Origin: Candidatus Omnitrophota bacterium
GTDB taxonomy: Bacteria; Omnitrophota; Gorgyraeia; Zapsychrales; Fredricksoniimonadaceae
Direction of reading: 5' to 3'
Assembly: GCA_044225175.1 (NCBI GenBank)
Contig: JBGAJA010000002.1
Span: forward strand, 728,991 to 792,990
DNA: 64,000 bases
Every line of letters begins with the position of its first letter. Positions within the stretch are counted from its first letter, which is position 1. A program made the position numbers and the translations under genes. Shown one piece after another: positions 27,564-64,000 of this stretch. The notes beneath the pieces were generated by a model. The model worked only from the letters and a program-made list of their open reading frames with translations. It ran no database searches and was not told the origin of the DNA.

Positions 27564-27567
27564 GAGG

Positions 27568-28838: not shown

Positions 28839-28853
28839 GGGATAGAGGTAAAA

Positions 28854-32038: not shown

Positions 32039-32334
32039 TGGGGGTGAGTATGTTAGGACGACGAAGTTATTTAAGAGTTAAAGTTAAATCGAGAGTTCAC
32101 TGGCGTGTAGAAGGTTCACCTTTGTCTGGTGAGGGAATTGTAATCAATTATAGTATTTCTGGAATTAAGTTAGTCTTAGATAAGGTTTTTGAACCACCTC
32201 AAGAATGTGTAGTTTTGATCGAACCATTAACAAGTTTTCAATTCACCGGTGTTAAGAAATTTAAAGTAAAGTGGCAGAAGAGAGTCATAGAGAATAATAT
32301 GGAATGCTTAGAGATTGCCGGAGATTTCATCTGA
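32038..32334 (+). CDS. PilZ-domain protein (putative c-di-GMP receptor) embedded in the dcw cluster
   Basis: RSYLR (RxxxR) followed about 25 aa later by NYSISG (D/NxSxxG). About 98 aa. Start overlaps the murE stop (TAATG). Confidence 0.5.
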   Translation: MGVSMLGRRSYLRVKVKSRVHWRVEGSPLSGEGIVINYSISGIKLVLDKVFEPPQECVVLIEPLTSFQFTGVKKFKVKWQKRVIENNMECLEIAGDFI

Positions 32335-32352
32335 GAATATAAAGATTTATAA

Positions 32353-33732: not shown

Positions 33733-33746
33733 AACCAAGGCAAACA

Positions 33747-34835: not shown

Positions 34836-34837
34836 TC

Positions 34838-37167: not shown

Positions 37168-37174
37168 GGAAAAC

Positions 37175-42095: not shown

Positions 42096-42106
42096 AGGGT
42101 CTGCTT

Positions 42107-43339: not shown

Positions 43340-43695
43340 TGGTCTTTAGGTTTTTGATCATTGCGTCGATGGCTTAAATTGAAATCAATGTTCTTAAGCA
43401 CACTGCGAAGTTTTAAAATGCTGCTAAAAATATATAGAATCCAAAATGAATTAAAAAGTAGAAGAATCACAATTAAAAGAGTATTGACTGTTTGAGCCAT
43501 TAATAGTTTTTCAAGGATAGTGCTTTTTTGAGCATCAATACTTACATCAATGATTTTAAGCGAATTTGCAAATGTAGCTACAAAGATAATAACGAGGATG
43601 AATTCAAAAAATAAAAGGTAGAAGTGGCGGACAATCCATTGTGCAGAGCGATTGTCCCATTGGCGAATCTTATTCATAAAGTCTTGATAGCTCAT
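43336..43695 (-). CDS. Small hypothetical membrane protein (2 TM)
   Basis: 119-aa ORF convergent with ftsA; two hydrophobic segments; no motifs. Confidence 0.45.
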   Translation of the reverse strand: MSYQDFMNKIRQWDNRSAQWIVRHFYLLFFEFILVIIFVATFANSLKIIDVSIDAQKSTILEKLLMAQTVNTLLIVILLLFNSFWILYIFSSILKLRSVLKNIDFNLSHRRNDQKPKDH

Positions 43696-43758
43696 TTGAG
43701 TTCCTTTTTAAGTATTCTAATGAGCTTTTATATTGCAGCAATAGAAAAATTAAGAACT

Positions 43759-44328
43759 ATGTATATTAAATCCATAATTTATATTTTTTTAGCAGGGACC
43801 TTATTTTCTGGCTGTATGAAACCTCCTTCTAGTACAGGTAGTTTAGGTTTTGCAGATACAAGACGAATCGTTATTGTTGGAGAAAATGTAAATTCTGATA
43901 TTGCTGGCTATTATCAAAAGAAATATGACGCACTGGTTTGGTTTACTCCTTTTCAAGGAAGAATTGCTTATAAAGCCCATAATCTTTTGCAAAGCGGTAT
44001 TGGGCCTAGCGTAGGAATGCGTAGCCTCATAAGAGAATTAAAAAGTATCAATTATTCGATTGGACAATGGCAGATCTTTGTTCCCGGAATTGCAGAGAAC
44101 TATTTTCTAGCGACTTTAAAAAGTATGGAGGATCATAGTTTATCTAAGGCGAGGGGGATGGTTGTTTTGATTGATTCTAAGGGCAATAAAGATATAGAGA
44201 TTTACTTAAAACGTGTAACAGATGGCAGTTTCTTTGTAAATTACGAATTTGGTAAAGATGTTAATGTGTCTGAAGATTCGGGGAATGAAAAAAGCGCGCC
44301 TGAGAGGGATCGAACCTCTAACCCTTAG
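43759..44328 (+). CDS. Hypothetical lipoprotein
   Basis: MYIKSIIYIFLAGTLFSGC lipobox. The ATG at 43759 is preferred to the ORF-track start at 43624. The 3' end overlaps the antisense tRNA-Arg by about 34 nt. Confidence 0.5.
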   Translation: MYIKSIIYIFLAGTLFSGCMKPPSSTGSLGFADTRRIVIVGENVNSDIAGYYQKKYDALVWFTPFQGRIAYKAHNLLQSGIGPSVGMRSLIRELKSINYSIGQWQIFVPGIAENYFLATLKSMEDHSLSKARGMVVLIDSKGNKDIEIYLKRVTDGSFFVNYEFGKDVNVSEDSGNEKSAPERDRTSNP

Positions 44329-44368
44329 TTCCGAAGACTAATGCTCTATCCAATTGAGCTACAGGCGC
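44295..44368 (-). tRNA. tRNA-Arg (anticodon TCG)
   Basis: Reverse complement folds as acceptor GCGCCTG/CAGGCGC, D stem GCTC/GAGC, anticodon stem TTAGT/ACTAA with loop CTTCGGA, T stem AGAGG/CCTCT with loop TTCGATC. 74 nt. Confidence 0.8.
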
Positions 44369-49916: not shown

Positions 49917-51158
49917 ATGTTATTGAGAAATGTATCCCTTATTATATCTATTTCTATATTATTTATGGTTCCTTCCGTAGAAGCCTCAGCAAAACAAAAA
50001 CCTTCCAAAGATTACAAAGAATACGCTGCTTTTTTTGAAAAAGTTTATAAAACATTTGAGGATAACTATTACCTTGAACCTGATCGTAAAATTTTTGATG
50101 ATTTTTTGGTTAAATTTAAAACCAAGATTTATGCTCAGTTAAGTGGTGAAGGTAAAAGTGATGATTATGTTAAATGGCGAAGTGCTTGGTATTTAGTAGA
50201 TTCTCTGAAGTCCAAAGAAGATCGATTTTCCCAATTTTATCCTCCAAAACCTGCTGAAAAGTTCCAAAAGGAGGCTTTAGGGCAGAATGTAGATTTAGGG
50301 ATTGAAGGTAATAAGTCTGATGTTGGGTTCATTGTGACTCGTATGGAACCACGCTCAGATGCTTATGAAAAGGGTTTAAGAGAAAATGATTTGTTAACGG
50401 CTATTGATGGATTAGATCTTAAAAAACTTACTCAAGAAGATATTGTGAAGAAGCTGACTCCTTTGGTTAATACTAAGGTTAAGTTAACATACCTAGAGCA
50501 TGATACAAAGGCTGCTAAAGCCATTGACGTTGTAAGTAAGGAGTATTTTAAACAGGAAGTGTTTTTAAGGCCTGTAGATGTTCCCGGAGTTTTTGCATTA
50601 GAAATTGTGCATTTTAATCGAACAACTGCAGAAGATTTGTTTCGTTATTTGCAATTTATTGAGCAGCAGAATCCTAGAGGTTTGGTCATCGACCTTAGAG
50701 GAAACCCCGGTGGTCCGCCACTAGCAGCCCGTGAAATAGCTTCCATGTTTTTAAAAGGTGGTGATGAGCTTGTTTATTTTCAAAAAAGGGGTCAACCTCG
50801 TGCGGATTTAGATATTCCTTCAATTCCAGCGCAATATCAATATAAAGGTCCCATTGTAATTCTAGTGAATCAAGACAGCGGTAGTTGTTCTGAGCTTTTT
50901 GCGGGAATTATGCAATATTATAAGCGGGCAGTTATTTTTGGGACAAATACAGCAGGACAAATGCTATTAAAATCAATGTTCCCCATGGAAGATGGGTCAA
51001 TGGTGGCTTTAGTTGTAGCGCGAGGGTATTATCCCAATGGAATTCCTTATAGTTTTAGTGGAGTGGTTCCGGATCAAGTGATTAATGATGCTCCTAAAGA
51101 AGGTTTGATTAATCTTGCCGCAGCTTATATGGTCATGAGCGCTCAAAAGAAACAATGA
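49917..51158 (+). CDS. C-terminal processing (tail-specific) peptidase, family S41
   Basis: Signal peptide; PDZ-like region; VIDLRGNPGGP catalytic Ser motif and a downstream Lys region. Confidence 0.8.
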   Translation: MLLRNVSLIISISILFMVPSVEASAKQKPSKDYKEYAAFFEKVYKTFEDNYYLEPDRKIFDDFLVKFKTKIYAQLSGEGKSDDYVKWRSAWYLVDSLKSKEDRFSQFYPPKPAEKFQKEALGQNVDLGIEGNKSDVGFIVTRMEPRSDAYEKGLRENDLLTAIDGLDLKKLTQEDIVKKLTPLVNTKVKLTYLEHDTKAAKAIDVVSKEYFKQEVFLRPVDVPGVFALEIVHFNRTTAEDLFRYLQFIEQQNPRGLVIDLRGNPGGPPLAAREIASMFLKGGDELVYFQKRGQPRADLDIPSIPAQYQYKGPIVILVNQDSGSCSELFAGIMQYYKRAVIFGTNTAGQMLLKSMFPMEDGSMVALVVARGYYPNGIPYSFSGVVPDQVINDAPKEGLINLAAAYMVMSAQKKQ

Positions 51159-51493
51159 TACAGCTGTTTTTATTAATGATAGTGCAATTGGTCATAGCCG
51201 TTATTGTAATTCTTGTTCTTAAAAGGCTTTTAGACCGTGAACTTAAGAAGGCTGCACTTGAAAAGTTTCAAACTTTAAAGATTAATGGGGAGAAGACCAT
51301 TACTATTTATTACGCAGGACAGTTATCTGCCCATGTTAAGGAAGAATTATTAGATGTTGCGAGAAATAAGTATAAAGAAAGTAATCTTGTTTTTGAACAG
51401 AACCAAATTCTTAAAGGCGGCTTAGTGATTGTCGTTGATGAACAGATGCTTGATTTCAGCGTATCTAATCGTCTAGAAAATTTTTGGTTATGA
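51155..51493 (+). CDS. Hypothetical small membrane protein
   Basis: 112 aa; N-terminal TM (LFLLMIVQLVIAVIVILVL); translationally coupled between the S41 peptidase and GT2 genes. Confidence 0.4.
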   Translation: MIQLFLLMIVQLVIAVIVILVLKRLLDRELKKAALEKFQTLKINGEKTITIYYAGQLSAHVKEELLDVARNKYKESNLVFEQNQILKGGLVIVVDEQMLDFSVSNRLENFWL

Positions 51494-52209
51494 ATTTAAA
51501 TTCCATAAAGATACTAATTATTGTTCCTGCTTTTAACGAGAGCGGAAATATTGCGCGTACGATTAGTGATATTAAGAATCAGAATTTGCCTCTTGATATT
51601 GTTGTTATTGATGACGGATCAACTGATACAACCGTTCGTGAAGCTGTTGCTGCAGGAGCCAACGTTGTTTCATTGCCCTTTAATTTAGGCATAGGTGGTG
51701 CAGTCCAAACTGGTTTTAAGTATGCTCTCAAGCATGATTATGATATTGCGATCCAAATGGATGGTGATGGACAGCATGACGGTAATTTCCTTGTTAAATT
51801 AATTAATCCTATTTTAGAAAATCAAGCGGATATGGTAGTGGGGAGTCGTTTTATTGAAGATAATGGGGGCTTCAAATCTTCTTTTGCTCGTCGAATAGGA
51901 ATTCGTTTCTTTGTTTCGTTAATCAATTTTCTTACTGGATTGAAGATTACTGATCCTACGTCTGGTTTTAGGGCCCATAATAAGAAAATGATTGCTGCTT
52001 TTGCGCGTAGTTATCCGCAAGATTTTCCAGAACCTGAAGCTATTGTGGTAGCTAAACATATTGGTGCTCAAATTAATGAGGTTTCTGTTTTGATGCGCAG
52101 ACGCGAAGATGGTAGTAGTTCGATTCGTCATATGAAAAGTGTCTATTATATGGTGAAGGTGACCTTTGCTATTTGCTTACATATGATTCAATCTCCTCAA
52201 AGGAAATAG
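51484..52209 (+). CDS. GT2 polyprenyl-phosphate glycosyltransferase (DPM1/GtrB/ArnC-like)
   Basis: ILIIVPAFNE...VVIDDGSTD...QMDGDGQHD (DxD region) typical of the GT-A fold GT2 family. Confidence 0.8.
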   Translation: MVMNLNSIKILIIVPAFNESGNIARTISDIKNQNLPLDIVVIDDGSTDTTVREAVAAGANVVSLPFNLGIGGAVQTGFKYALKHDYDIAIQMDGDGQHDGNFLVKLINPILENQADMVVGSRFIEDNGGFKSSFARRIGIRFFVSLINFLTGLKITDPTSGFRAHNKKMIAAFARSYPQDFPEPEAIVVAKHIGAQINEVSVLMRRREDGSSSIRHMKSVYYMVKVTFAICLHMIQSPQRK

Positions 52210-52566
52210 ATGATGAATATACATTTTCTCGCAATCGCCTTGTCTCTTTTAATTTTTTTGTTAGTTGTGGATTTGGTTCGCCGTCAAAAATTAACTTTTA
52301 AATATGCTTTGGCTTGGTTGATGGTTTCAGGATCTGCAGTTTTCTTTGCTATTTTTTATAAGTTTCTTTTTAAGATAGCAGACTTTTTGGGTTTTGAGCT
52401 TCCTAGCAACTTTATTTTTTTCACATTATTTTGTGTCTTCGTGTTCTTAAGCCTTGTGCTAACAGTGTTTTTGTGTCAGCAGAATAATCGTAATGACACT
52501 ATGGCTCAAAAAATTGCGCTTTTAGAATTTGATATTAAGCAAATTAAACAAAAAACCTCAACCTAG
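52210..52566 (+). CDS. Small 3-4 TM membrane protein (DUF2304/GtrA-like companion of GT2 enzymes)
   Basis: 118 aa, hydrophobic, immediately downstream of the GT2 gene as in many GT2/small-membrane-protein pairs. Confidence 0.5.
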   Translation: MMNIHFLAIALSLLIFLLVVDLVRRQKLTFKYALAWLMVSGSAVFFAIFYKFLFKIADFLGFELPSNFIFFTLFCVFVFLSLVLTVFLCQQNNRNDTMAQKIALLEFDIKQIKQKTST

Positions 52567-52577
52567 AAAGCTTTCAC

Positions 52578-53561
52578 TTGATTCTTAGTGTTATTGTGCC
52601 TGCCTATAATGCTCAGGGAACGATTGGTAAAACCCTGAAAGCTTTAACCGAACAAGATTTTTCAGGATCTTTTGAGATTATCGTTGTTGATGACGGGTCT
52701 ACGGATCAAACTGCCGAAATTATACGCACATTTCCTAAAGTTCAATACATTTATCAGCCCAATGCTGGTCCTGGGACGGCTCGTAATCATGGAGCAAAAG
52801 TCTCTCAAGGGCAAGTACTTGCCTTTACGGATTCAGATTGTATTCCTCATAAAGATTGGCTTACTCGTTTGATGGAAGGGTTTATATCAGATGATGTTGG
52901 GGTTGTTATGGGTAGTTATGGAATTGTTAATAAGGAGAGTTTATTAGCTTTCTGTGTTTATAAAGAAATTATTTTTCGGCATAACAAATTTTTGAGTGAT
53001 TTTCCAAAAGTTTTTGGAGGGTATAATTTTTGTATAAAAAAAATTGTTTTTGAGCAGGTAGGTGGTTTTAATACTTCCTATAGGAATGCAAGCGGGGAAG
53101 ACAATGATCTAAGTTATAAGATCATTTCAAGTAATTGGCGCATTTATTTTGAGCGTAAAGCCCTTGTAGACCACTATCATCCAACTCAATTGAATAAGTA
53201 TTTGAAAGAACAGTTTCGTCATGGTTTTTGGAGGGTGCGTATGTACATGGATCACCCTGGCATGGCTTCTGGGGATGGGTATACGTTCTGGAAGGATATT
53301 GTAGAGATACCTCTAAGTCTGTTTATCATAGTATTTATTTTGCTAAGTCCTTTTAATCTAATAAGTTTTAAAGATTTGTTTTTTTATCTTTTCTTTCCTT
53401 TTTTGTTTTTGGAAATTTTTTTCGCACAGAGGATGCTTCATGATATCAATAAAGAATTTTTTTGGGGATTTGTTATGTTTTTAAGAAGTTTTAGCAGAGC
53501 TTTAGGTTTGTCGACGGGAATTTTGTATATTTTTATTAAAAAAAATTTAAATAAACCTTGA
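52578..53561 (+). CDS. GT2 glycosyltransferase with C-terminal membrane anchor
   Basis: SVIVPAYNAQ...IIVVDDGSTD...FTDSDCIP motifs; hydrophobic C-terminus; alternative (TTG) start. Confidence 0.75.
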   Translation: MILSVIVPAYNAQGTIGKTLKALTEQDFSGSFEIIVVDDGSTDQTAEIIRTFPKVQYIYQPNAGPGTARNHGAKVSQGQVLAFTDSDCIPHKDWLTRLMEGFISDDVGVVMGSYGIVNKESLLAFCVYKEIIFRHNKFLSDFPKVFGGYNFCIKKIVFEQVGGFNTSYRNASGEDNDLSYKIISSNWRIYFERKALVDHYHPTQLNKYLKEQFRHGFWRVRMYMDHPGMASGDGYTFWKDIVEIPLSLFIIVFILLSPFNLISFKDLFFYLFFPFLFLEIFFAQRMLHDINKEFFWGFVMFLRSFSRALGLSTGILYIFIKKNLNKP

Positions 53562-53671
53562 AACACATTAATGCTATGTTAAGATGATTCCATATTATAG
53601 ATAAATAAATTTTTAGAAATGCCTTAAAAATGTTATTAGATGTTTTTCTTCGACGATATTTTAATTAAAAG

Positions 53672-54268
53672 GTGAATATGGCTAAAGAGACAGCCGAACA
53701 AAAGTTACTCAAAGCACTTCAGAAAAAATCACCAGGAGCAGTTCCTTCCGTCGGCAAAAAGCTTGATGAGAAGAAGAAATTAAATTTTTCTTTTTCAATT
53801 TTTGATCTCAATAAAATTTTATTTATAGCCATTCTTGTTTGTCTCGCCATTTTAATTTATCAATTTCATTCCGGTTCCGTTTTAATTAATAAAGATGTCA
53901 GTTTTCTAGATCAAGTCAAAACCAACCCTGCCAAAGAACAAATAAATAATCTCAAAGAAAAAAACGATGTTAAGTATTACATTAATAGTTTTGGAAATCG
54001 TAATATTTTTAAACCATACGACATTTCTCTTGGCAAAGCAGCTGCAGGCCAGCCAGATTTAGCTAAGCGTTTAACAAAATATAAACTTGTTGGAGTTGCT
54101 TGGCTTGATCTTCCTGAATCTGCCTCAATTATGGTTGAAGATTCTCAAACGAAAACAACATATTTTCTTAAAACTGGAGAAAAATTAGAAGGCGTAACAG
54201 TTAAGACTATCTATACGGATAGAGTAGTCTTCAGTTACGAAAATGAGGAGACGACAATTAAGCTATGA
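53672..54268 (+). CDS. Bitopic inner-membrane protein, possible secretin-associated (PilP/PilN/GspC-like) component
   Basis: Lys-rich cytoplasmic N-terminus, single TM (ILFIAILVCLAILIYQF), about 120-aa periplasmic beta-rich C-terminus. Stop overlaps the secretin start (ATGA). Confidence 0.45.
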   Translation: MNMAKETAEQKLLKALQKKSPGAVPSVGKKLDEKKKLNFSFSIFDLNKILFIAILVCLAILIYQFHSGSVLINKDVSFLDQVKTNPAKEQINNLKEKNDVKYYINSFGNRNIFKPYDISLGKAAAGQPDLAKRLTKYKLVGVAWLDLPESASIMVEDSQTKTTYFLKTGEKLEGVTVKTIYTDRVVFSYENEETTIKL

Positions 54269-55935
54269 TAAAACATATCCTTAAACCCAAACTGATTTTA
54301 TTGTTGGTTTTGTTTTTTACGATGCCAATGATTCTTATTGCATCCCGAGCCTACTCTCAGGAAGAAAATGCTTCGGACGCTAATGAGAATGCAGGGGCGG
54401 AGCTTCCTAAACCAATTATTTTAACCGAACCTAAAGAGCCTCTTGAAGATCGTATGCAGCGCAAGATTACTTTAGATGTCCGCGATATGAATGTCGTCGA
54501 TGTTATTAAATTTCTTGCTCAAAAAGGTGAATTTAATGTGGTTATTTCCCCTAATGTTGATGGTCGCACAACAGTGTTGCTACATGCTGTTTCAATCCAA
54601 GATGCCTTAGACATTGTTTCGATTTCAAATAAGCTGGCTTATCACACAGAAGGTCAAATTCTTCAAATAATGTCTGCTGCAGAATATGAAGCGCTTTATG
54701 GAAAACAATTTGGTGATAAAACACAAGTTACAATTATTCATTTGCAGTATTCAAAACCAAGCTATGTATTAGCTGCTTTGGATAACATGAAAAGTAATAT
54801 TGGAAAGATTATTATTGATGAAGATACAGGAACAGTTGTTTTAGTAGATACTCCTCAATCAATTACTGTGATGAAAAAAGCAATCGAACAGATTGAACGA
54901 CCATTAGATACTTTTGTTTATGATCTTAAGTATGCAAAGGCAGATGTGGTTGCTGAGAAATTGCGTTCAAGGATTGATGCCAAAGCTGTTGGATCAATCA
55001 CTGCTGATGAACGTTCTAATCAATTGCTTGTCAGGGTTTTTCCAGGAAGACATGATGAAGTAGAGAAGATCATTAAAAGCTTAGATGAGCCAACCAAAGA
55101 AGTTTTAATCGAAGCTCGTGTTTTGGAAATTATCTTGAAACCTAATTACGATATGGGAATTGATTGGAAAGATCAAATCTTTAATAATGGTAAAAGTAAA
55201 TTTAGTGTATCTGGTAATTATCTTAATGATTCCAGCCCTTCTGATCCTTTAAATTCTGTTTTTACCAGAATAGGTGTAGGTAATGCTAATACCAAAGACT
55301 TTACTTTAGCTATTAGATCTTTACAACAAGTCAGTGATACTAAAATCCTTTCAACCCCTCAAATATTAGTAACTAATAATGAAGAAGCTAAGATTCACAT
55401 TGGGGATACCGTTCCTTATATAGTCTCAACAACCAATGGTACGGGTGATAATGCTGTAAGAAGCGAAGACGTAAGATTTATAGATGTTGGACTTAAGTTG
55501 GATGTTGTTCCAGTCATCAATGATGATGGAATGGTTACCATGAGACTTCGTCCAGAAATTTCTTCAGTTGTTGGAAAAATTACTTCCCAAGGCGGTGGAA
55601 TTCCCCAAGTTAATAAAACTGAGGTTGAAACTAGCGTTATGGTTCTTGATGGCCAAACTATTGTTTTGGCAGGGTTAAGAAAAGAAGACAAATCACACAT
55701 TAAAAAAGGACTTCCAGTCTTAATGAATGTCCCATATTTAGGAAATTTATTTTCCAGCACATCAGATGCAATAACTTCTACTGAAATCGTTATTTTAATT
55801 ACGCCACATATTATTAAAGGTAGCGATGATTATGCAAAAGTTCAAGGAACTGTTAAACCTGCTAAGAATTATGATGAAAACTTTAAAATGAAGGAACCGG
55901 TTCAAAGTGACAATCAACCACCGGCTAAATACTAA
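54265..55935 (+). CDS. Secretin-family outer-membrane channel (GspD/PilQ-like)
   Basis: Signal peptide; N0-like domain; canonical secretin domain (ILSTPQILVTNNEEAKIHIGDTVPY...VNKTEVETSVMVLDGQTIVLAGL...PVLMNVPYLGNLF...IVILITPHII). Confidence 0.9.
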   Translation: MIKHILKPKLILLLVLFFTMPMILIASRAYSQEENASDANENAGAELPKPIILTEPKEPLEDRMQRKITLDVRDMNVVDVIKFLAQKGEFNVVISPNVDGRTTVLLHAVSIQDALDIVSISNKLAYHTEGQILQIMSAAEYEALYGKQFGDKTQVTIIHLQYSKPSYVLAALDNMKSNIGKIIIDEDTGTVVLVDTPQSITVMKKAIEQIERPLDTFVYDLKYAKADVVAEKLRSRIDAKAVGSITADERSNQLLVRVFPGRHDEVEKIIKSLDEPTKEVLIEARVLEIILKPNYDMGIDWKDQIFNNGKSKFSVSGNYLNDSSPSDPLNSVFTRIGVGNANTKDFTLAIRSLQQVSDTKILSTPQILVTNNEEAKIHIGDTVPYIVSTTNGTGDNAVRSEDVRFIDVGLKLDVVPVINDDGMVTMRLRPEISSVVGKITSQGGGIPQVNKTEVETSVMVLDGQTIVLAGLRKEDKSHIKKGLPVLMNVPYLGNLFSSTSDAITSTEIVILITPHIIKGSDDYAKVQGTVKPAKNYDENFKMKEPVQSDNQPPAKY

Positions 55936-56709
55936 TTGAAGCGGAGAAACCTTATGGGTAACCACAACTGGTCTAGAGTTTCAAAACACATTACAGTAAT
56001 GATTATTTTAATGGTTTGTTGGGCAATGGGACAACACCCAGCAGTTTATGCTCAAGATAATACAGATGTTCCAGCTGAACTTGGAACACCACAACCACAA
56101 GATGATCGCGAGCAATTTGTTAAAGAAATTCGACGTGTTGAAAATTTAAACAGAAAATATACTAAAGAAATTGAAGAAATCAAGTCGCTTTTATCTGAAA
56201 AAGATGAAGATTTCCAAAAAAGAATGAAGAGTTTAGAGGATAAATTAGTTTCTCAGCAAGGCGAAAGCAAAAAAACAATTGTAGATGAGAAAAATCAACA
56301 AACTTCCAAAGAATTAGAAGTTAAAACCAATGAAATGCTTTCAAAAGGTGTTGATTTAGATTTGGATGATCAACAATTTAAAGAAGAATTAGCTAAAGCA
56401 CATTACAACATGGGAAATATTTATTTTGAACGTGGCGAATATCAAAGAGCGGTCGTCGAATATTATCAAGCTGTTGATTTAACTCCAAATGATCCAGATA
56501 CACACTACAATTTAGCCTTCGTCAGTGGAGAGTATTTAGGTGACCAAGAAACTGCTCTTAAGCATTATCAATGGTATTTGTACCTAAAACCTAATGCAGC
56601 TGACGCCAGTAATGTTAAAGCAAAGATTATACAAGCTAAATTACACTTTAGAGCTAAGGTAGATTCAATAATTGATAAAGATAACGGTCACTACAATCTT
56701 GTTCGTTAA
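55936..56709 (+). CDS. TPR-repeat protein with signal/anchor and coiled coil (possible secretin pilotin/accessory)
   Basis: Hydrophobic N-terminus; K/E-rich coiled coil; C-terminal TPR motifs (AHYNMGNIYFERGEYQRAVVEYYQAVDLTPNDPDTHYNLAF). Confidence 0.6.
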   Translation: MKRRNLMGNHNWSRVSKHITVMIILMVCWAMGQHPAVYAQDNTDVPAELGTPQPQDDREQFVKEIRRVENLNRKYTKEIEEIKSLLSEKDEDFQKRMKSLEDKLVSQQGESKKTIVDEKNQQTSKELEVKTNEMLSKGVDLDLDDQQFKEELAKAHYNMGNIYFERGEYQRAVVEYYQAVDLTPNDPDTHYNLAFVSGEYLGDQETALKHYQWYLYLKPNAADASNVKAKIIQAKLHFRAKVDSIIDKDNGHYNLVR

Positions 56710-56737
56710 ATTTTTTTCTAAATAGATTTCTAAAATT

Positions 56738-58303
56738 ATGACCCAGAAGTTTTCACAAATTGTATTCACACTAATAGCTATTTGTCTTTTGACAACAGTT
56801 GCACAAGCTAACAATTTGTCCATATCTAACGTTACTTTAGGGACCAGAAATCCTGGTGCCAATTCTCTTATTGTTAAATTTAATGTGAGTTGGGATCATT
56901 CTTGGCACAATAAGATTAATCATGATGCCGCATGGCTTACTATTCGACTACACAATACATCTGATACCACAACCAATAAAAAAATTTGTGAGGTTAGTGC
57001 GAGTGGAATAAATCCAGCAGGGTCTTCCGTCGGAACAGCTACAAATTTGGAATTTTATGTACCTTCAGATAAAAAAGGGGCATTTTTAAGAAGATCTTCT
57101 AATGGTAACGTTATTAATGTGTCCACACAAGGTGCTCAGTTGACAATTGATTACAGTAGTTGTGGTTTTTCTGATGATGACCAAATTATTGCCAGCGTTT
57201 TTGGGGTTGAAATGGTTTTTATTCCTCAAGGTGATTTTTACGCTGGAGATTATGATACTAGCACTGCTTCATTAGATCAGGGAACTGCAGATAATCGTCC
57301 ATGGCACATAATTAATGAAAACTCAATTTCAGTAAACAATCCTTCTACAGGTGGATTTCGCTATATTTCTAATAATAACTCAGGAGAAGTAGCCACAGGA
57401 GCATCGTTTGCTATTCCTAATAATTTTCCCAAAGGTTACGCTCCATTTTATGTCATGAAATATGAAATTACTGAAGGTCAATGGGTTGAATTTATCAATT
57501 CTTTAGGATCTGCTGCTGCCCGCTCTAATCGCGATTTGACCGATAATAATCATAAGAATTCCGATGCAGTGACAGCAAGAAATACAATTAGTTGTTCAGG
57601 TTCGCCATTGAGTTGTTCTACTCTACGTCCTGCCCGCGCAGTAAGTTTTTTAAGTTGGATGGATTTAGCAGCATTTTTAGATTGGAATGCTCTTCGACCT
57701 ATGAGTGAATTAGAGTTTGAAAAAATTGCCAGAGGTCCAAGTTTACCAATCCCCGGTGAATATGTATGGGGAAATACTATAATTGCACCAGCTGCTGATT
57801 TAAGCGGTGATGAAGATGGCTCCGAAACAATCACTACTACAGATGCCAATGTCAATATTCTTGGTAATTCAAGCTTTGTTGGGGGAGATGCCCAAGCAGG
57901 ACCTATACGATCCGGAATTTTTGCTACAAGTGCAACTAATAGAACAACCGCTGGTGCTGGTTACTATGGAGTCATGGAATTGTCAGGTAATCTTAAAGAA
58001 CACGTAGTCACAATCGGAAATCCTTCAGCGCTTACTTTCGACGGTACCCAAGAAGGAGATGGTGTTTTGACCTCAGTTTCTGGATTTGAAGGTAATGCGA
58101 ATACTATTTCTTGGCCAGGAACTGATGCTACTCCAGCAAATGGTGTAACAGGAGCGGATGGTTCTGGTTTTCGAGGTGGATCATGGGCTGATTTGACTAA
58201 TAGTTTATTAAGGACATCTGATCGTAGTGAAGCTTCGTTATCTTCAACATCAGCAGCAGATAATTTTGGCGGTAGAGGGGTTCGAACATATGATGGCAAT
58301 TAA
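56738..58303 (+). CDS. Secreted FGE-sulfatase (SUMF1/DUF323)-fold protein, GldJ/GldK-like, paralog A
   Basis: Signal peptide ...TTVAQA; beta-rich N-terminal domain; FGE-fold motifs FYVMKYEITEGQW, RPARAVSFLSWMDLAAFLDWNALRPMSELEFEKIARG, VWGN, RGGSW. Confidence 0.75.
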   Translation: MTQKFSQIVFTLIAICLLTTVAQANNLSISNVTLGTRNPGANSLIVKFNVSWDHSWHNKINHDAAWLTIRLHNTSDTTTNKKICEVSASGINPAGSSVGTATNLEFYVPSDKKGAFLRRSSNGNVINVSTQGAQLTIDYSSCGFSDDDQIIASVFGVEMVFIPQGDFYAGDYDTSTASLDQGTADNRPWHIINENSISVNNPSTGGFRYISNNNSGEVATGASFAIPNNFPKGYAPFYVMKYEITEGQWVEFINSLGSAAARSNRDLTDNNHKNSDAVTARNTISCSGSPLSCSTLRPARAVSFLSWMDLAAFLDWNALRPMSELEFEKIARGPSLPIPGEYVWGNTIIAPAADLSGDEDGSETITTTDANVNILGNSSFVGGDAQAGPIRSGIFATSATNRTTAGAGYYGVMELSGNLKEHVVTIGNPSALTFDGTQEGDGVLTSVSGFEGNANTISWPGTDATPANGVTGADGSGFRGGSWADLTNSLLRTSDRSEASLSSTSAADNFGGRGVRTYDGN

Positions 58304-59948
58304 AACCATAGCATTCACACTACTAGCTTTCTTGGTATTAGTACCATCTAGCTATGCCAATAATTTACAGTTAAAAAATTTGAATGTGGTAAGTTCAGAT
58401 ACAGCTTCAGAAACGATGACTTTCTCTTTTGACTTAACTCAAGAAAATAGCTGGAGAACTAATACCAATAATACAATTAGTTATGATGCTGTATGGGTTT
58501 TTATGAAATATTCAACTGATGGTGGAATTACCTGGAAGCATGGTACCATGAATGGAAGCGGTGTTAATCCCGCAGGTTTTTACGCTCCAGCTAATTTCCA
58601 GATTGAAGTCCCAGTCATTGACCAAAAAGGTTTCTTTTTGCATCGTTCTGATTTTGGTTCAGGAAACATTGCTCCAACAGGAATCAAATTTGTATGGAAC
58701 TATCACCAAGATGGTTTAACAACTGCGGTGGCTGAAGCTTCAAATACAATTCATAAAATATTCGGTATTGAAATGGTCTATATTCCCACAGGCGCATTTT
58801 ATGCGGGAGATGGGGACAGTTCTGCAGAATTCCATCTAAAAGCTGGATCAGCAGACAATACTCCTTGGTATATTCAAAGTGAAACTGGTTTCATGACAAC
58901 CAATACTCCTAATGGAGGGTATTATTACGTAAGTACTGGAGCTACTGGTGAATATGCAGATGGTGCCCCCTTCCAAATAACAAATGATTTTCCTAAAGGT
59001 TATAATGCATTTTATTTAATGAAATATGAATTAACTGAAGGACAATGGGTCAGCTTCTTTAATACACTTTCTAATGCAGCGAAAGTCAATCGCGATATTA
59101 CAACAGGTACAGGTGTAGGTGGAAAGGCCTCTGATGGTGTGGTTAATCGTAATACTATCGCTTGGGACCACTTACAACCTTCATTACCGGCTACCACTTT
59201 AAGACCATCTCGACCTGTTAGCTATGTTTCATGGCCTGATGTTGCAGCTTATGCAGCATGGGCAGGTCTTCGTCCTATGACAGAATTAGAATTTGAAAAA
59301 GCTGCACGTGGGAAAGGTAAAGAAGCCATTGCTGATGAGTTTGCTTGGGGTAATACAAGTTATTCTAGCGCTAATCCTTCTGATATCGATCCTAATGCTG
59401 ATGAAAATGGCACAGAAACAATTTTGACTGGTTCTGCAAACTTTAATGGTAATTCTTCAGGGTTTACCAGTGGTGATGGACGTCCAGGTGGGCCAGCAGA
59501 TGGTCAAGTTGGACCTCTTCGTTCTGGAATTTTTGCCTCTGCTCTTTCGAATAGAAATAAGAGCGGAGCAGGTTTTTATGGCAATATGGAACTTTCCGGT
59601 AATTTATATGAGCCCGTTGTCACCATAGGTCGTACTCAAGGACTTTCTTTTCTGGGTTCTCATGGAAATGGTGAATTAACAAGTGCTTCCGGATATGAAG
59701 GTTTTGCATCCAATAGTGATTGGCCTGGATATGATTCAGCACATGGTGTTGTAGATCACACTAAAGGTATTGGTTACCGAGGGGGAGATTTTAAATCATC
59801 TCTTCGTGCTTTTGAAATTTCTTCTCGAACAAATGCAGCTAAAGATCCAGATACTCAAGGATGTCTTCAACGTTATGATTCAGGTGCAGGATGCGTTGGG
59901 TTAAGTGGAGTCTTTTACGGTGGGCGTTTAGCTAGAACAGCACCTTAA
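58290..59948 (+). CDS. Secreted FGE-sulfatase (SUMF1/DUF323)-fold protein, GldJ/GldK-like, paralog B
   Basis: Start at MMAIKTIAFTLLAFLVLVPSSYA (signal peptide), overlapping paralog A by 14 nt. Colinear with paralog A: FYLMKYELTEGQW, RPSRPVSYVSWPDVAAYAAWAGLRPMTELEFEKAARG, AWGN, RGGDF. Confidence 0.75.
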   Translation: MMAIKTIAFTLLAFLVLVPSSYANNLQLKNLNVVSSDTASETMTFSFDLTQENSWRTNTNNTISYDAVWVFMKYSTDGGITWKHGTMNGSGVNPAGFYAPANFQIEVPVIDQKGFFLHRSDFGSGNIAPTGIKFVWNYHQDGLTTAVAEASNTIHKIFGIEMVYIPTGAFYAGDGDSSAEFHLKAGSADNTPWYIQSETGFMTTNTPNGGYYYVSTGATGEYADGAPFQITNDFPKGYNAFYLMKYELTEGQWVSFFNTLSNAAKVNRDITTGTGVGGKASDGVVNRNTIAWDHLQPSLPATTLRPSRPVSYVSWPDVAAYAAWAGLRPMTELEFEKAARGKGKEAIADEFAWGNTSYSSANPSDIDPNADENGTETILTGSANFNGNSSGFTSGDGRPGGPADGQVGPLRSGIFASALSNRNKSGAGFYGNMELSGNLYEPVVTIGRTQGLSFLGSHGNGELTSASGYEGFASNSDWPGYDSAHGVVDHTKGIGYRGGDFKSSLRAFEISSRTNAAKDPDTQGCLQRYDSGAGCVGLSGVFYGGRLARTAP

Positions 59949-59985
59949 TTAATGAAAGCTTTATTATTGTTTTTTATAAAAGTTC

Positions 59986-62900
59986 ATGTCAGATAAAAAA
60001 TTAAAATTGAAAACTTCAAATCGTCTACTACTATGCTTGGCTCTGTTAGCGTTTTCTGTAGTCGGTTTCGTTGTCTCTAAAGCCTTTGCTCAATACACTG
60101 GCGGCAATCAAACTTCTATTGAAGAAGCCACGATTGGAAGCAACATTTATGTTGGCGGTTCTCAAACCAATACTCCCTATGCTAGCTCTGATGGAACAGG
60201 ATCTTTGTCCCATGGTGCTGCAACCAAACTCGTTTTTAGTGTTATTCCTTCAGCAGAAAAACACGGTATAGCCTTTAGTCGCCAACCTGTTGTAGTCATT
60301 GAAGATGCTAATGGAAATATAGTTACTAGTGATAATTCAACTCAAGTAACCATTGCAATTCTTAATAATCCAGGCAATGGTGTCTTAAGAGGAGCTACTA
60401 CCATCCAGGCAGTTAATGGTTCTGCTAATTATTCCGACTTAAACATTACAAAAGCTGGACAACTTTATACATTGCAAGCAACTGCTGAAGGATTAACATC
60501 AGCTATTTCTTCTCCATTTGATGTACAGGTTGGAACAGGTCCTCAGGGTACTGCTACTTGGATAAGTACTTTAGGAGCATACCGTATTTTTACATGGATT
60601 GTAGATAACAACCAAAGACTGCCTTTAACCGGTGATACCTGTAATGATACTGTAATTTATAAAGCTGATGGGACTTCCGAAACAACGCTAACGATGGGAA
60701 CACCAGATCTCGTAAATAATTGGTGTAAATCTGATTTGACTTGGACACCTTCTAACTCTCAAATTTCTTATTTTGCAAATATTTCAATTATTCACTCTTC
60801 TACGACTCTTGAAAATTATATACCTTTAACTTTATCTGGTGGTTTTGCTCGTGATACATATGGTAACAATATCAACTGGCAAGACATTGCTCTCATCAAG
60901 GCTAAAACAGACACCATTAACTGGCAAGATATTGGAGTTATTAAAAGTAGCACAGATACAGTTAATTGGCAGGATGTCAGTGTTATTCTTTCCAATACAA
61001 ATTCTATTAAATCCATCACCAGTACTATTTCTACAAATGTCAATTGGCAAGACATTGATCGTATGTCCCAATCAGGTGTCAATTGGATGGATGTGGCTCG
61101 AACAACTTTAGTTGGGATTAATTGGAATGATTTCTCAATATTATCAAATGTTGGTATTAATTGGGCTGATTTTAGCGTCCTTACTAAGGGTGGGATCAAT
61201 TGGAATGATATTAGCGTGTTAGGTAAAGCTCATGTTAATTGGGCTGATTTCTCAAAACTTTCTTCTTTAGGAATTAATTGGAATGATATGGACAAGCTTT
61301 TTAAGGCCGGCGTGAATTGGCAAAGCTTTTCCTTATTATCAAATACAGGAATTAATTGGTATGACATGGCTATCATGTCTGGAGCAAGAATTGATTGGTC
61401 AAACACAATTAATTGGTACAGTCTTGCCGCTTTAACAACTTCAGGAGTAAATTGGAATGATTTAGCTATTTTATCAGTCAATAATATTAATTGGAATGAT
61501 ATCAAAATTTTGTCTACCGTTGGGATCAATTGGAATGATTTGAATATTTTAAGTAAGTCAGGAATTAATTGGCGTGATATAGATCTTTTAACCACGGCTG
61601 GAATTAATTGGGTAGACTTTGGAATTTTAGGTAAAGCTGGAATCAATTGGAATGATTTAGGAGTGTTAGCTAAAACAGGAATTAATTGGCAAGATTTAGG
61701 AGTTTTTACTAAAGCTGGCATCAATTGGAACGATTTAGGTGTTTTAACTAAAACGGGAATTAATTGGTTGGATTTACAAGTTTTATCTCGCACAGGAATT
61801 AATTGGAGTGATATTAATGTTTTAAGTAAGACAGGAATTAACTGGCAAGACTTTACGGCATTGAGTAAAGTCGGAATCAACTGGAATGATTTAGGAGTAT
61901 TAGCAAAGACTGGAATCAACTGGCAAGACTTAGGAGTGTTAAGTAAGGCTGGAATCAACTGGAATGATTTAGGAATATTAGCCAAGACAGGAGTTAATTG
62001 GCAAGATTTTGGAGTACTAAGTAAGGCTGGAATTAACTGGAATGATTTAGGAGTATTGGCCAAAAGTGGAATTAACTGGCAAGATTTTGCAGCAGTGAGC
62101 AAGGTAGGGATCAATTGGAATGATTTGCAAGTCATGCATTCACTTGGAATCAACTGGCAAGATTTTGCAGCGTTGAGTAAAGTTGGAATCAACTGGAATG
62201 ATTTAGGAGTATTAGCAAAGACCGGAATCAACTGGCAAGACTTTGCAGTATTAAGTAAGAATGGAATCAACTGGAATGATTTAGGAGTGTTGGCAAAGAC
62301 AGGAATCAACTGGCAAGATTTTGGAGTGTTGAGTAAGACGGGAATTAACTGGAATGACTTAAATGTGTTAAGTAGAACTGGAGTTAATTGGCAAGATTTT
62401 GGAGTGTTAAGTAAGGTTGGAGTCAACTGGAATGATTTAGGAGTGTTAGCCAAGAGTGGAATTAATTGGCAAGATTTAGGAGTATTGAGTAAGACAGGAA
62501 TCAATTGGAATGATTTAGGAGTATTAGCAAAGACAGGAATCAACTGGCAAGATTTAGGAGTGTTAAGTAAGACCGGAATTAACTGGAATGACTTAAATGT
62601 GTTAAGTAGGACCGGAGTAAACTGGATGGATTTAGCAGTGTTCAGTAAAGCCGGAGTTAACTGGAATGATTGGGGAATATTAGGAAAGAGCGGAATCAAT
62701 TGGCAAGACTTTGCAGCGTTGAGCAAGGTAGGGATCAATTGGAATGACCTAGTTACATTAAGTAAGACCGGAGTTAACTGGCAAGATTTTGCAGCATTAA
62801 GTAAGACGGGAATTAACTGGAATGACTTAAATGTGTTAAGTAGAACCGGGATTAACTGGATAGATTTAGCAGTGTTTAGTAAATCTGGAGTTAACTGGAA

Positions 62901-64000
62901 TGATTGGGGAATATTAGGAAAGAGTGGAATCAACTGGCAAGACTTTGCAGCGTTGAGTAAAGTTGGAATCAACTGGAATGATTTAGGAGTGTTGGCGAAG
63001 ACCGGAATCAACTGGCAAGATTTAGGAGTATTAAGCAAGACAGGAATTAATTGGAATGACATGCAGGTATTGCATGCAACAGGAATCAACTGGGTTGATT
63101 TAAGTGTATTTAGCAAGGTAGGAATCAATTGGAATGATTGGAGTGTGTTAGGCAAGAGTGGAATTAACTGGCAAGATTTTGGAGTATTAAGCAAGGTAGG
63201 AGTTAATTGGAATGATTTAGGAGTGTTGGCGAAGACCGGAATCAACTGGCAAGATTTAGGAGTGTTGAGTAAGGTTGGGATCAATTGGAATGATATTGGA
63301 GTATTAGCGAAGAGTGGAATTAACTGGCAAGATTTAGCAGCCTTTAGTAAGGCAGGGGTTAACTGGAATGATTGGGGAATATTAGGAAAGAGTGGAATCA
63401 ACTGGCAAGATTTTGCAGCATTGAGCAAAGTTGGAATCAACTGGAATGATTTAGGAGTATTAGCAAAGACCGGAATCAACTGGCAAGACTTAGGAGTGTT
63501 AAGTAAGGCTGGAATCAACTGGAATGATTTAGGAGTATTAGCAAAGACTGGAATTAACTGGCAAGATTTAGCAGCCTTTAGTAAGGCAGGGGTTAACTGG
63601 AATGATTGGGGAATATTAGGAAAGAGTGGAATCAACTGGCAAGACTTTGCAGCATTGAGCAAAGTTGGAATCAACTGGAATGATTTAGGAGTATTAGCAA
63701 AGACCGGAATCAACTGGCAAGACTTTGGAGTGTTAAGTAAGGCTGGAATCAACTGGAATGATTTAGGAGTATTAGCAAAGACAGGAATCAACTGGCAAGA
63801 TTTTGGAGTATTAAGCAAGGTAGGAGTTAACTGGAATGATTTAGCAGTGTTAGCAAAGACCGGGGTTAACTGGCAAGATTTTGCAGCAGTGAGTAAGGTT
63901 GGGATCAATTGGAATGATTTGCAAGTCATGCATTCACTTGGAATTAACTGGCATGATTTTGCAGCATTGAGCAAAGTCGGAGTTAACTGGAATGATTTAG
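59986..64000 (+). CDS. Giant secreted tandem-repeat protein (3' end beyond window): signal peptide, Ig-like N-terminal region, then at least 80 copies of a 13-aa G(I/V)NW(N/Q)D(L/F)(G/A)(V/A)L(S/A)K(T/A) repeat
   Basis: ATG at 59986-59988. MSDKKLKLKTSNRLLLCLALLAFSVVGFVVSKAFAQ signal peptide. Manual translation of this frame is open to the window end. Residues about 60-160 resemble a bacterial Ig-like domain (VxVxDANGNxV...GxAxxGxAxF..LxIxKAGxYTLxAxAxGL). Repeats begin about 60868. Confidence 0.8.
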   Translation, partial: MSDKKLKLKTSNRLLLCLALLAFSVVGFVVSKAFAQYTGGNQTSIEEATIGSNIYVGGSQTNTPYASSDGTGSLSHGAATKLVFSVIPSAEKHGIAFSRQPVVVIEDANGNIVTSDNSTQVTIAILNNPGNGVLRGATTIQAVNGSANYSDLNITKAGQLYTLQATAEGLTSAISSPFDVQVGTGPQGTATWISTLGAYRIFTWIVDNNQRLPLTGDTCNDTVIYKADGTSETTLTMGTPDLVNNWCKSDLTWTPSNSQISYFANISIIHSSTTLENYIPLTLSGGFARDTYGNNINWQDIALIKAKTDTINWQDIGVIKSSTDTVNWQDVSVILSNTNSIKSITSTISTNVNWQDIDRMSQSGVNWMDVARTTLVGINWNDFSILSNVGINWADFSVLTKGGINWNDISVLGKAHVNWADFSKLSSLGINWNDMDKLFKAGVNWQSFSLLSNTGINWYDMAIMSGARIDWSNTINWYSLAALTTSGVNWNDLAILSVNNINWNDIKILSTVGINWNDLNILSKSGINWRDIDLLTTAGINWVDFGILGKAGINWNDLGVLAKTGINWQDLGVFTKAGINWNDLGVLTKTGINWLDLQVLSRTGINWSDINVLSKTGINWQDFTALSKVGINWNDLGVLAKTGINWQDLGVLSKAGINWNDLGILAKTGVNWQDFGVLSKAGINWNDLGVLAKSGINWQDFAAVSKVGINWNDLQVMHSLGINWQDFAALSKVGINWNDLGVLAKTGINWQDFAVLSKNGINWNDLGVLAKTGINWQDFGVLSKTGINWNDLNVLSRTGVNWQDFGVLSKVGVNWNDLGVLAKSGINWQDLGVLSKTGINWNDLGVLAKTGINWQDLGVLSKTGINWNDLNVLSRTGVNWMDLAVFSKAGVNWNDWGILGKSGINWQDFAALSKVGINWNDLVTLSKTGVNWQDFAALSKTGINWNDLNVLSRTGINWIDLAVFSKSGVNWNDWGILGKSGINWQDFAALSKVGINWNDLGVLAKTGINWQDLGVLSKTGINWNDMQVLHATGINWVDLSVFSKVGINWNDWSVLGKSGINWQDFGVLSKVGVNWNDLGVLAKTGINWQDLGVLSKVGINWNDIGVLAKSGINWQDLAAFSKAGVNWNDWGILGKSGINWQDFAALSKVGINWNDLGVLAKTGINWQDLGVLSKAGINWNDLGVLAKTGINWQDLAAFSKAGVNWNDWGILGKSGINWQDFAALSKVGINWNDLGVLAKTGINWQDFGVLSKAGINWNDLGVLAKTGINWQDFGVLSKVGVNWNDLAVLAKTGVNWQDFAAVSKVGINWNDLQVMHSLGINWHDFAALSKVGVNWNDL
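60868..64000 (+). repeat. 39-bp (13-codon) coding tandem repeat array, organised as a 78-bp higher-order repeat, degenerate at the 5' side and near-identical toward the 3' side
   Basis: Repeated units such as ggaatcaactggcaagacttaggagtgttaagtaaggct and ggaatcaactggaatgatttaggagtattagcaaagacc recur head-to-tail to the end of the window. Confidence 0.9.

Follow-up and report, generated by a model that had tools for sequence, protein, structure and literature searches.

An Omnitrophota type IV filament gene cluster that includes two probably non-catalytic FGE-fold proteins and a repeat protein of variable length, predicted to be helical

The present work concerns a stretch of 64,000 nucleotides from an Omnitrophota genome, called the window below, and in particular its end, where eleven open reading frames (ORFs), all on the + strand between 49917 and 64000, were located from the ORF list and translations. 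They encode an S41 protease and a glycosyltransferase module, followed by a secretin with a bitopic partner, a TPR protein, two paralogous secreted proteins of the formylglycine-generating enzyme (FGE) fold, and finally a repeat protein whose gene is cut off by the window end at 64000. Omnitrophota are abundant, uncultivated and ultra-small bacteria that are thought to be predators or parasites. Our analysis revealed that the two FGE-fold proteins, which are non-enzymatic, and the helical repeat protein of variable length are newly noticed parts built into a known machine; more specifically, bases 53672-64000 very probably represent the outer-membrane and periplasmic 5' half of a type IV filament supercluster resembling the secretion system of type II (T2SS) and the MSH pilus. 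The observation is real and is conserved far beyond chance. A preliminary description of the same DNA had proposed a cell-surface system for a giant repeat protein, and a coherent envelope system around such a protein is borne out; with the cut-off half taken into account, this system is related to T2SS and type IV pili (T4P).

Because the window ends inside the repeat gene, the earlier statement that the gene combination matches neither T2SS nor T4P is an artefact. In fact, no gene for GspE, GspF, GspG, a minor pseudopilin or GspK lies in the 64 kb; in the related contexts described below, all of these are found downstream of the repeat gene as members of the same cluster. The secretin is thus no orphan, and its bitopic partner is of the GspC/GspB type as well. 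On almost all contigs the repeat gene is cut by the contig end; it is thus a systematic assembly breakpoint, which splits the locus in most metagenome-assembled genomes (MAGs) and is probably the reason why both halves were not connected before. Five downstream contexts were read, namely locus L006, contig CAZNDZ010000001.1 (loci L011 and L083), a JGI contig, and loci L085 and L086. The complete repeat ortholog in L006 measures 868 aa and has a signal peptide, an immunoglobulin-like (Ig-like) domain, INW repeats and a C-terminal coiled coil. Next comes a gene for a 435-aa protein that has a signal peptide and a transmembrane (TM) helix at its C-terminus and that served as the query to find further downstream contexts; F-type ATPase genes come after it. 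On the 1.34-Mb contig CAZNDZ010000001.1, a repeat gene of 8087 aa starts right after FGE paralog 2 (L011 position 11648, record position 758,367) and ends at record position 782,630, which is L083 position 9992, the coordinates agreeing exactly; after it come a gene for a 434-aa protein, the alpha, epsilon, c, 75-aa, b/delta, gamma and beta genes of an F-type ATPase, and then genes for GspE with an MshEN domain, GspF, a Peptidase_MA_2 protein, a T2SSG pseudopilin and an N-methyl minor pseudopilin. A like layout is seen on the JGI contig, with a repeat gene of 7686 aa and reaching to a T2SSK gene, and at the contig starts of L085, of the MAG that also holds L051 (Ca. Zapsychrus exili), and of L086, from the same MAG as L004, the closest relative of the window (secretin 86% identical). 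In L069 the halves are rearranged, with a GspE gene (MshEN and T2SSE) directly upstream of an ExeA-like gene, and the module is retained. The GspE/MshE-like ATPase of L085 (9059-11278, 739 aa, Ca. Zapsychrus exili) bears an extra PilZ domain, which suggests control by cyclic di-GMP.

The ATPase-like cluster of the relatives (L083 11325-16746, L006 15574-20980, also in L085 and L086) consists of seven genes, where the 75-aa protein has two TM helices, b and delta form a fusion, and the c-like subunit retains its membrane glutamate; no a subunit is recognisable in any of the ATPase clusters that were read. Such a cluster, possibly of non-respiratory type, lies within 10 kb of type IV filament genes in all five related contexts. 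By analogy with these contexts, the source genome should hold beyond 64000 the remainder of the repeat gene, with a conserved coiled-coil end of the form '...KLEEITAKxNALxEAMQ...W(Y/F)ES(E/D)', then a gene for a bitopic membrane protein of about 434 aa, and after it seven F-type-ATPase-like genes and those of GspE(MshEN), GspF, GspG-type and minor pseudopilins, and GspK.

The conservation of the upstream half was followed from FGE paralog 2, which has more than 3259 relatives in the protein collection, including an identical 552-aa protein (P0001); the top 120 relatives are 55-72% identical, and the named ones among them are labelled Candidatus Omnitrophota/Omnitrophica. A scan of GTDB with one genome per species found a relative of the FGE protein encoded in 347 species genomes, and 79 loci were kept from it, nearly all labelled Omnitrophota; some carry the label 'uncultured Planctomycetales', and their proteins are as similar to those of the window as the proteins of Omnitrophota-labelled MAGs are. 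When the window proteins were blasted against all ORFs of the kept loci, 71 loci had both a secretin and an FGE gene, with the TPR gene present in 70 of them and the GspC-like bitopic gene in 63, while an orthologous N-terminus of the repeat protein lies directly after the FGE genes in 63 loci, the remainder being cut by contig ends. The order of GspC-like partner, secretin, TPR protein, FGE-like paralogs and repeat protein is seen in about 70 related species loci. That the arrangement of secretin, TPR protein, FGE pair and repeat protein is functionally linked, as had been proposed, is upheld by its conservation in 70/71 of the secretin and FGE loci, distant lineages included. The median identity reaches 63% for the secretin (65 loci), 56-58% for the FGE proteins (56% for paralog 1, in 74 loci) and 44% for the N-terminus of the repeat protein; conservation of the FGE proteins near the secretin level would suit structural partners better than host-facing adhesins.

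The distant loci, where the FGE proteins are 36-46% identical to those of the window (L060, L069, L073 and L075-L079), have upstream genes unrelated to the window's, and in them an ExeA-like AAA ATPase, the GspC-like protein, secretin and TPR protein are still encoded together with the repeat protein and one to four FGE-fold proteins. The block of S41, OSCP-like (where present), GT2, DUF2304 and GT2 genes, preceded by lipB, occurs only in closer lineages and is absent from the distant loci; these loci keep the core without it, which marks the block as a neighbour specific to a clade and outside the core. The genes at 49917-53561 are accordingly a syntenic neighbour block of one large clade, in which the S41 gene is found upstream in 50 of the 71 loci and GT2 with DUF2304 is conserved in 53 loci, the first GT2 (51484-52209) with a median identity of 60%. 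The inclusion of the protease and the GT2 module in the system, as the preliminary description had it, does not hold, and glycosylation of the repeat protein by these enzymes is unsupported because the GT2 block stands outside the conserved core. The core starts at the gap of 110 bp between 53561 and 53672, the widest between the genes considered here and lying between the S41/GT2 block and the secretin block, for the distant loci keep only the genes from there on. In lineages with the ExeA-like gene, a 226-aa S-adenosylmethionine-dependent methyltransferase gene absent from the window stands between DUF2304 and the second GT2 (L002/L003 2793-3473 and the corresponding places of the other loci of this kind).

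All genes and overlaps that had been listed before are present (Table 1), including the ATGA junctions at 51155 and 54265 and the 14-nt overlap of the two FGE genes, and each named family in the locus scores above the Pfam gathering cut-off, so that the assignments of the secretin, FGE-sulfatase, GT2 and S41 genes are confirmed. A gene for a 112-aa OSCP-like protein had been missing from that listing. The bitopic gene overlaps the secretin start by 4 nt, the core genes are spaced by overlaps or by gaps of at most 37 nt, and the start of FGE paralog 2 is the ATG at 58290 within an ORF that opens at a GTG at 58227. No terminator-like site was found on the + strand between 49917 and 59780, but the promoter and terminator scans are uninformative, with fewer sites than in shuffled sequence. 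As nearly all genes of the 64-kb window are on the + strand, co-direction alone is weak evidence.

Table 1. Genes and repeat array at the end of the window, with the evidence for each assignment
Feature	Position	Strand	Evidence
S41 C-terminal-processing protease with PDZ domain, signal peptide	49917..51158	+	Pfam Peptidase_S41 E 2e-36, PDZ E 1.3e-8
112-aa protein, N-terminal TM helix and ATP-synthase delta/OSCP-like C-terminal domain	51155..51493	+	Pfam OSCP 34.1 bits (cut-off 22.3)
GT2 glycosyltransferase, short, of polyprenyl-phosphate-sugar-synthase-like size	51484..52209	+	Pfam Glycos_transf_2 E 3.2e-27
DUF2304 small multi-pass membrane protein	52210..52566	+	Pfam DUF2304 E 1.4e-22
GT2 glycosyltransferase, hydrophobic C-terminus	52578..53561	+	Pfam Glycos_transf_2 E 7.5e-35
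Bitopic inner-membrane protein, GspC/GspB-type homology region (HR; secretin-binding) domain, no PDZ	53672..54268	+	T2SSC E 0.0019 (weak); orthologs stronger
GspD/PilQ-type secretin, signal peptide	54265..55935	+	Pfam Secretin E 4.9e-48 and two Secretin_N
Secreted TPR protein, coiled-coil N-half, TPRs in C-half	55936..56709	+	Pfam TPR_11 E 2e-14 and others
FGE-fold paralog 1, signal peptide, N-terminal beta-sandwich, predicted non-catalytic	56738..58303	+	Pfam FGE-sulfatase 43.5 bits (cut-off 23.3)
FGE-fold paralog 2, 552 aa, signal peptide, predicted non-catalytic	58290..59948	+	Pfam FGE-sulfatase 63.6 bits (cut-off 23.3)
Secreted repeat protein, 5' part, 1338 codons, runs off window end	59986..64000	+	Translation; no Pfam family
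DNA tandem array, period 78 nt (two 13-aa units), 30.8 copies, 76% matches	61598..64000	+	Tandem Repeats Finder

The secretin stays below the cut-off of three NCBIfam models, with 244.8 bits for GspD (cut-off 351), 241.3 for PilQ (284) and 173.9 for MshL (250), and its best solved relative is the T2SS GspD of P. aeruginosa (XcpQ, 5wln, E 4e-37), followed by PilQs. The GspC-like protein of the window taken alone is weak, with T2SSC at E 0.0019 (below cut-off), GspC_delta at E 9e-4, and GspC 7oio at E 0.17 as its sole PDB profile match, while among 62 orthologs Pfam T2SSC is matched in 35 (best E 5.2e-8) and T2SSB in seven; judged by these profiles, it is a secretin partner of GspC/GspB type with an HR domain and without PDZ. 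The TPR protein has weak best NCBIfam matches to PilW and Tgl, where the similarity is generic only, and shows no lipobox by inspection; by analogy its position appears to correspond to that of MshN or of TPR proteins of pilotin type. An ExeA/GspA-like AAA ATPase gene is found in 26 of the 71 loci between the second GT2 and the bitopic gene, that is at the place of the 110-bp gap of the window, and its product best matches TIGR03015 (the ExeA/MshM-type family) below the cut-off. As for the upstream block, the S41 protease matches the NCBIfam prc subfamily with 152 bits, again below the cut-off. The OSCP-like protein has orthologs at the same position in about 20 loci; it is the only hint at an F-type ATPase cluster that the window gives, and its pairwise similarity to the b/delta subunit of the downstream cluster of relatives is not significant, although it looks like a miniature of that b/delta fusion.

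Over the full length, the two FGE-fold proteins share 43% identity, and by inspection both have signal peptides with cleavage sites like those of signal peptidase I (AQA/NN in paralog 1, SYA/NN in paralog 2) and no canonical lipobox. The number of such paralogs between the TPR and the repeat gene varies from one to four by lineage (L075 7058-13573, L079 7025-13564, L076, L078, L081). The similarity of paralog 2 to solved FGEs is confined to the central segment 'RPV..VSW.DA.AYA.WAG.R.PTE.E.E.AARG' (E 6e-9). Catalytic FGE binds copper by a cysteine pair in a C-terminal GGS(F/Y)xCxxxxC motif. The catalytic region, GGSFLCHE in 5nxl, reads RGGSWADL in paralog 1, and in paralog 2 it reads RGGDFKSS; the consensus that 18 orthologs give for the family is 'YRGGDFxSxNIRxFQxSSR', and no cysteines stand at the aligned positions. 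From their sequences, the proteins are taken to be non-catalytic. With the cysteine pair missing and no gene for a sulfatase close by, a role as catalytic FGE or in sulfatase maturation is rejected. Similarly, the reading of this fold, shared with C-type lectins, as the variable protein of a diversity-generating retroelement is rejected, since no reverse transcriptase was found in the scanned window ORFs of at least 110 aa and the C-termini of the FGE proteins are highly conserved.

The likeness to GldJ and GldK, which had been drawn in the preliminary description, extends to fold and context and no further. The Pfam fold is shared in a predicted non-catalytic form, and the context is alike as well, with non-catalytic FGE-fold paralogs encoded beside an outer-membrane translocon and a giant repetitive surface protein as for GldJ/GldK (PorK). 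However, the pair matches no GldJ, GldK or PorK model in NCBIfam at E <= 0.01, and no chain of these proteins is among its PDB profile matches at E <= 1; moreover the pair has no lipobox, bears an extra N-terminal beta-sandwich, has a secretin and not SprA/GldLMN as partner, and belongs to another phylum, and no T9SS (type IX secretion system) family is found among the scanned window ORFs of at least 110 aa. The NCBIfam matches of the pair are weak ones to SenA/EgtB, and its N-termini are weakly like a putative S-layer protein model.

The repeat protein begins with a signal-peptide-like segment, an Ig-like domain at about residues 74-185 and a second domain, after which 13-aa units follow from residue 296 (nt 60868), with 80 units in register to the window end, of which 75 are spaced by exactly 13 aa, and with the consensus GINW[NQ]D[LF][GA]VL[SA]K[TVAS]. 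Its length varies about nine-fold, the complete orthologs having 868 aa (L006), 7686 aa (JGI contig) and 8087 aa (L011/L083). Homolog search with the N-terminus returned short fragments only, and residues 74-185 or so fall within a tandem Ig-like domain that is very common in large proteins and that swamped an exhaustive representative search. Pfam matches of the repeat region (Pox_A31, Ntox33, Mastoparan and others) are discarded as noise summed over repeats, no individual stretch being significant. As for Mastoparan (summed E 1.5e-6, no single significant stretch), the unit GINWNDLGVLAKT (window 60868-64000) does resemble amphipathic helical peptides of the mastoparan type, probably by mere amphipathic helix composition. 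In an AlphaFold2 model of 20 units, with in-register segments of the window as pseudo-alignment, each 13-aa unit forms one helix of 9-10 residues with a predicted local distance difference test score (pLDDT) of 72, and the only significant PDB matches of the model are designed alpha/alpha toroids at low TM-scores, with no natural structural match. The model makes a short-helix alpha-solenoid with a local helix-turn-helix repeat plausible, the overall superhelix geometry not being established, and if it were an ordinary alpha-solenoid with an assumed rise of about 1 nm per helix pair, 8087 aa would extend to a few hundred nanometres.

Taken as a whole, we favour the reading of an Omnitrophota-specific type IV filament supercluster that exports a repeat fibre through its secretin, for which we see an even chance. 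The repeat protein would cross the inner membrane by Sec, and a pilus or pseudopilus assembled by GspE and GspF would push it through the secretin, so that it would be displayed at the surface as a long alpha-solenoid fibre with an Ig-like N-terminal domain contacting host or prey cells; the FGE-fold pair would be conserved structural or carbohydrate-binding, lectin-like accessories at the secretin and not enzymes. In relatives the FGE, repeat and 434-aa genes are inserted inside the type IV filament gene set and not beside it. The function is inferred, surface display of the fibre through the secretin being the most likely one, and the export step in particular is put forward tentatively, as somewhat short of an even prospect.

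Several points weigh against this reading. The downstream half is inferred from relatives, the source sequence ending at 64000, and the putative link between repeat protein and secretin comes from gene context. Substrates of a T2SS as a rule fold in the periplasm, and a fibre of up to 8 kaa (thousand amino acids) in an ultra-small cell fits poorly with this. GspL and GspM were not recognised in the gene tables of related loci (in L069 two unannotated genes, of 446 and 169 aa, precede gspE), and the ExeA-like gene of many relatives is absent from the window. Members of the FGE-like family also occur as singletons far from any secretin (L067 9980-11584, L080 344-1942). The AlphaFold2 model of FGE paralog 2 from an 18-sequence alignment is poor (pLDDT 47), with only the N-terminal beta-sandwich confident, and Foldseek of this model against the PDB gave nothing significant; the repeat model is moderately confident, with a predicted TM-score of 0.45 and the other four models lower.

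With T2SS the locus shares a secretin of GspD type, by type and not as equivalog, and a GspC/GspB HR partner, to which the relatives add an ExeA-like ATPase, GspE, GspF, GspG, minor pseudopilins and GspK. It differs in that the secretin stays under the GspD equivalog cut-off, the GspC-like protein lacks PDZ, GspL/M are not recognised and the ATPase has an MshEN domain, and moreover in that the operon is split by FGE-fold genes, a repeat gene of 0.9-8 kaa, the 434-aa protein and the F-type ATPase cluster. In the strongest of the alternatives, the locus would encode a true type IV pilus of type IVa (T4aP) or MSH-like kind, the secretin being the conduit of a retractable or adhesive pilus, and the FGE and repeat proteins, as co-regulated accessories or adhesins, travelling another route or staying periplasmic instead of being cargo of the secretin. 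The secretin does score PilQ (241 bits) as well as GspD (245 bits), the MshEN domain of the ATPase is typical of MshE, with a PilZ domain in addition in L085, and the order of secretin, ExeA(MshM)-like ATPase, MshN-like TPR protein, MshE-like ATPase and platform recalls the operon of the mannose-sensitive haemagglutinin (MSHA) pilus. In Vibrio the msh genes run mshL-mshM-mshN-mshE-mshG. The differences from MSHA are that the MshL model reaches 174 bits, well under its equivalog cut-off of 250, that the pilin-like genes are of GspG/GspK type, and that the ExeA-like gene precedes the secretin in relatives and is missing from the window. TXSScan-based calls have assigned these loci to T4aP (Seymour et al. 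2023, PMC10066038), whereas the pilin-like genes found here match T2SSG and T2SSK and the partner protein is GspC/B-like. PilT and PilM/N/O/P were found neither in the window nor in the gene tables of relatives within ±10 kb, including the five downstream neighbourhoods read, though they could lie elsewhere in the genome. A true pilus also leaves unexplained why every lineage has the FGE pair, together with the repeat and 434-aa genes, placed with the secretin half on one side and the ATPase/platform half on the other, and we regard it as unlikely, both as to the pilus itself and as to the other route of the FGE-fold and repeat proteins.

The F-type ATPase cluster leads to two bolder proposals. 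In the first, which we consider quite improbable, the supercluster would encode a diderm envelope machine of a class not recognised so far, in which the type IV filament apparatus and the ATPase without a subunit would act together on an alpha-solenoid fibre of hundreds of nanometres, with the 434-aa bitopic protein and FGE-fold proteins arranged as a ring at the secretin as the connecting parts, the fibre being extruded, anchored and mechanically worked. In the second, a motor-driven surface apparatus that seems very unlikely to us, the ATPase-like complex would hydrolyse ATP and move, extend or retract a fibre threaded through or anchored at the secretin, with the movement passed on by the 434-aa protein and the coiled-coil C-terminus of the repeat protein, and with the FGE pair as a periplasmic ring like GldK/PorK; the analogy is the gliding of Mycoplasma mobile with an F1-like ATPase and giant leg proteins. 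Consistent with a motor, the ATPase cluster in 5/5 contexts stands with the repeat/434-aa genes on one side and gspE on the other, it has no a-subunit gene and a non-canonical gene order, both the repeat and the 434-aa protein have conserved coiled-coil regions, and an extra OSCP-like protein is encoded in the window. Moreover the alpha subunit has been placed with the Mycoplasma type 2/3 F1-like ATPases and host-surface motility has been suggested (Seymour et al. 2023, PMC10066038). However, the reasoning is purely architectural, the best solved relatives of the alpha subunit are ordinary bacterial F1 alpha chains (E 1e-130 or better) with no Mycoplasma chain in the top 60, and no GldJ/K-specific similarity is found. 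The c-like subunit keeps its membrane-embedded glutamate, which leaves room for an ion-coupled enzyme whose a subunit is encoded at another place, and the cluster may simply be the ATP synthase of the cell. The likeness to M. mobile thus lies in ATPase-derived genes encoded with very large surface proteins (Gli349/Gli521); the present organism is a diderm with a secretin and pseudopilins, its repeat protein is unrelated, and its alpha subunit is nearest to the ordinary bacterial ones.

Mere inherited synteny, in which the secretin belongs to a T2SS or T4P and the FGE-like and repeat proteins are unrelated envelope proteins such as surface-layer components, could appeal to the housekeeping genes (lipB, gcv, dcw) that are also syntenic in close relatives among almost exclusively co-directional genes, to FGE-like family members outside the secretin context and to the S-layer-like N-termini, but it is highly improbable, since distant lineages lose the housekeeping and S41/GT2 neighbours while secretin, TPR, FGE and repeat genes stay together, L069 keeps the module although its halves are rearranged, and the FGE and repeat genes stand inside the filament gene set and not beside it.

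Part of this locus has been noticed before. An F-type ATPase and T4aP genes were reported to lie within 10 kb of each other on 57 of 66 contigs, in every Omnitrophota class (Seymour et al. 2023, Nat Microbiol, PMC10066038); in our reading of a supercluster this is the same locus type in the same phylum, since its ATPase and filament genes are those found downstream of the repeat gene in relatives. The searchable text and supplements of that study (PMC10066038) make no mention of the part with secretin, TPR protein, FGE pair, repeat protein and 434-aa protein, nor are the present genes mentioned in a 2025 limonene-enrichment paper. The earlier suggestion that the system is probably undescribed therefore holds for the FGE pair, the repeat protein and the 434-aa protein, for which no description was found in the literature searched, and not for the ATPase/T4aP machine itself. 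Giant proteins of Omnitrophota near T2SS/Tad-like loci have been read as serving contact with prey or host (West-Roberts et al. 2023 bioRxiv 10.1101/2023.11.21.568195; 2026 bioRxiv 10.64898/2026.06.07.730766). These archaeovorins and Dockerin-type giants measure at least 10-30 kaa, mostly have multiple TM helices and carry HEAT, SecA-DEAD, dockerin or thrombospondin domains, and their neighbouring system is gspD/E/F with rcpC and a peptidylprolyl isomerase (10.1101/2023.11.21.568195; 10.64898/2026.06.07.730766). A large secreted or surface protein encoded beside type II/IV secretion-like genes is common to both cases, whereas the present protein has 0.9-8 kaa, under the 25-30 kaa or so that mark such giants, a signal peptide and 13-aa INW repeats only, and Pfam shows none of their domains in it.

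Upstream, the window holds housekeeping genes, with gcvTHP and lipB besides the dcw cluster. In window 27123-44368, this cluster (mraZ to ftsA) ends without an FtsZ-like gene, and the next ORF after it (43624-44328) has no Pfam family and overlaps a tRNA-Arg gene (44294-44368, - strand). Within the cluster, a Peptidase_MA_2 gene (38236-39024, +) sits between murG and murC, and its product is 30% identical (E 1e-36) to the Peptidase_MA_2 protein encoded between gspF and gspG in relatives (L083 19684-20511). Directly upstream of the dcw cluster, a 2335-aa ORF (19985-26992, +) without Pfam family is the second large uncharacterised protein of the window.

The locus belongs to the best-conserved envelope gene sets of Omnitrophota, with a repeat protein that varies roughly nine-fold in length and that the model suggests to be a new short-helix solenoid. 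After GldJ/GldK of Bacteroidota, its FGE pair would be a second, independent case in which the FGE fold has been recruited as a non-enzymatic partner of an outer-membrane translocon. If the filament apparatus and the ATPase did work together on the fibre, ultra-small Omnitrophota would use it to attach to, move on or attack host cells. With the secretin module added to it, the published F-type ATPase/T4aP locus offers specific candidates, open to testing, for the cell-contact apparatus of these bacteria.

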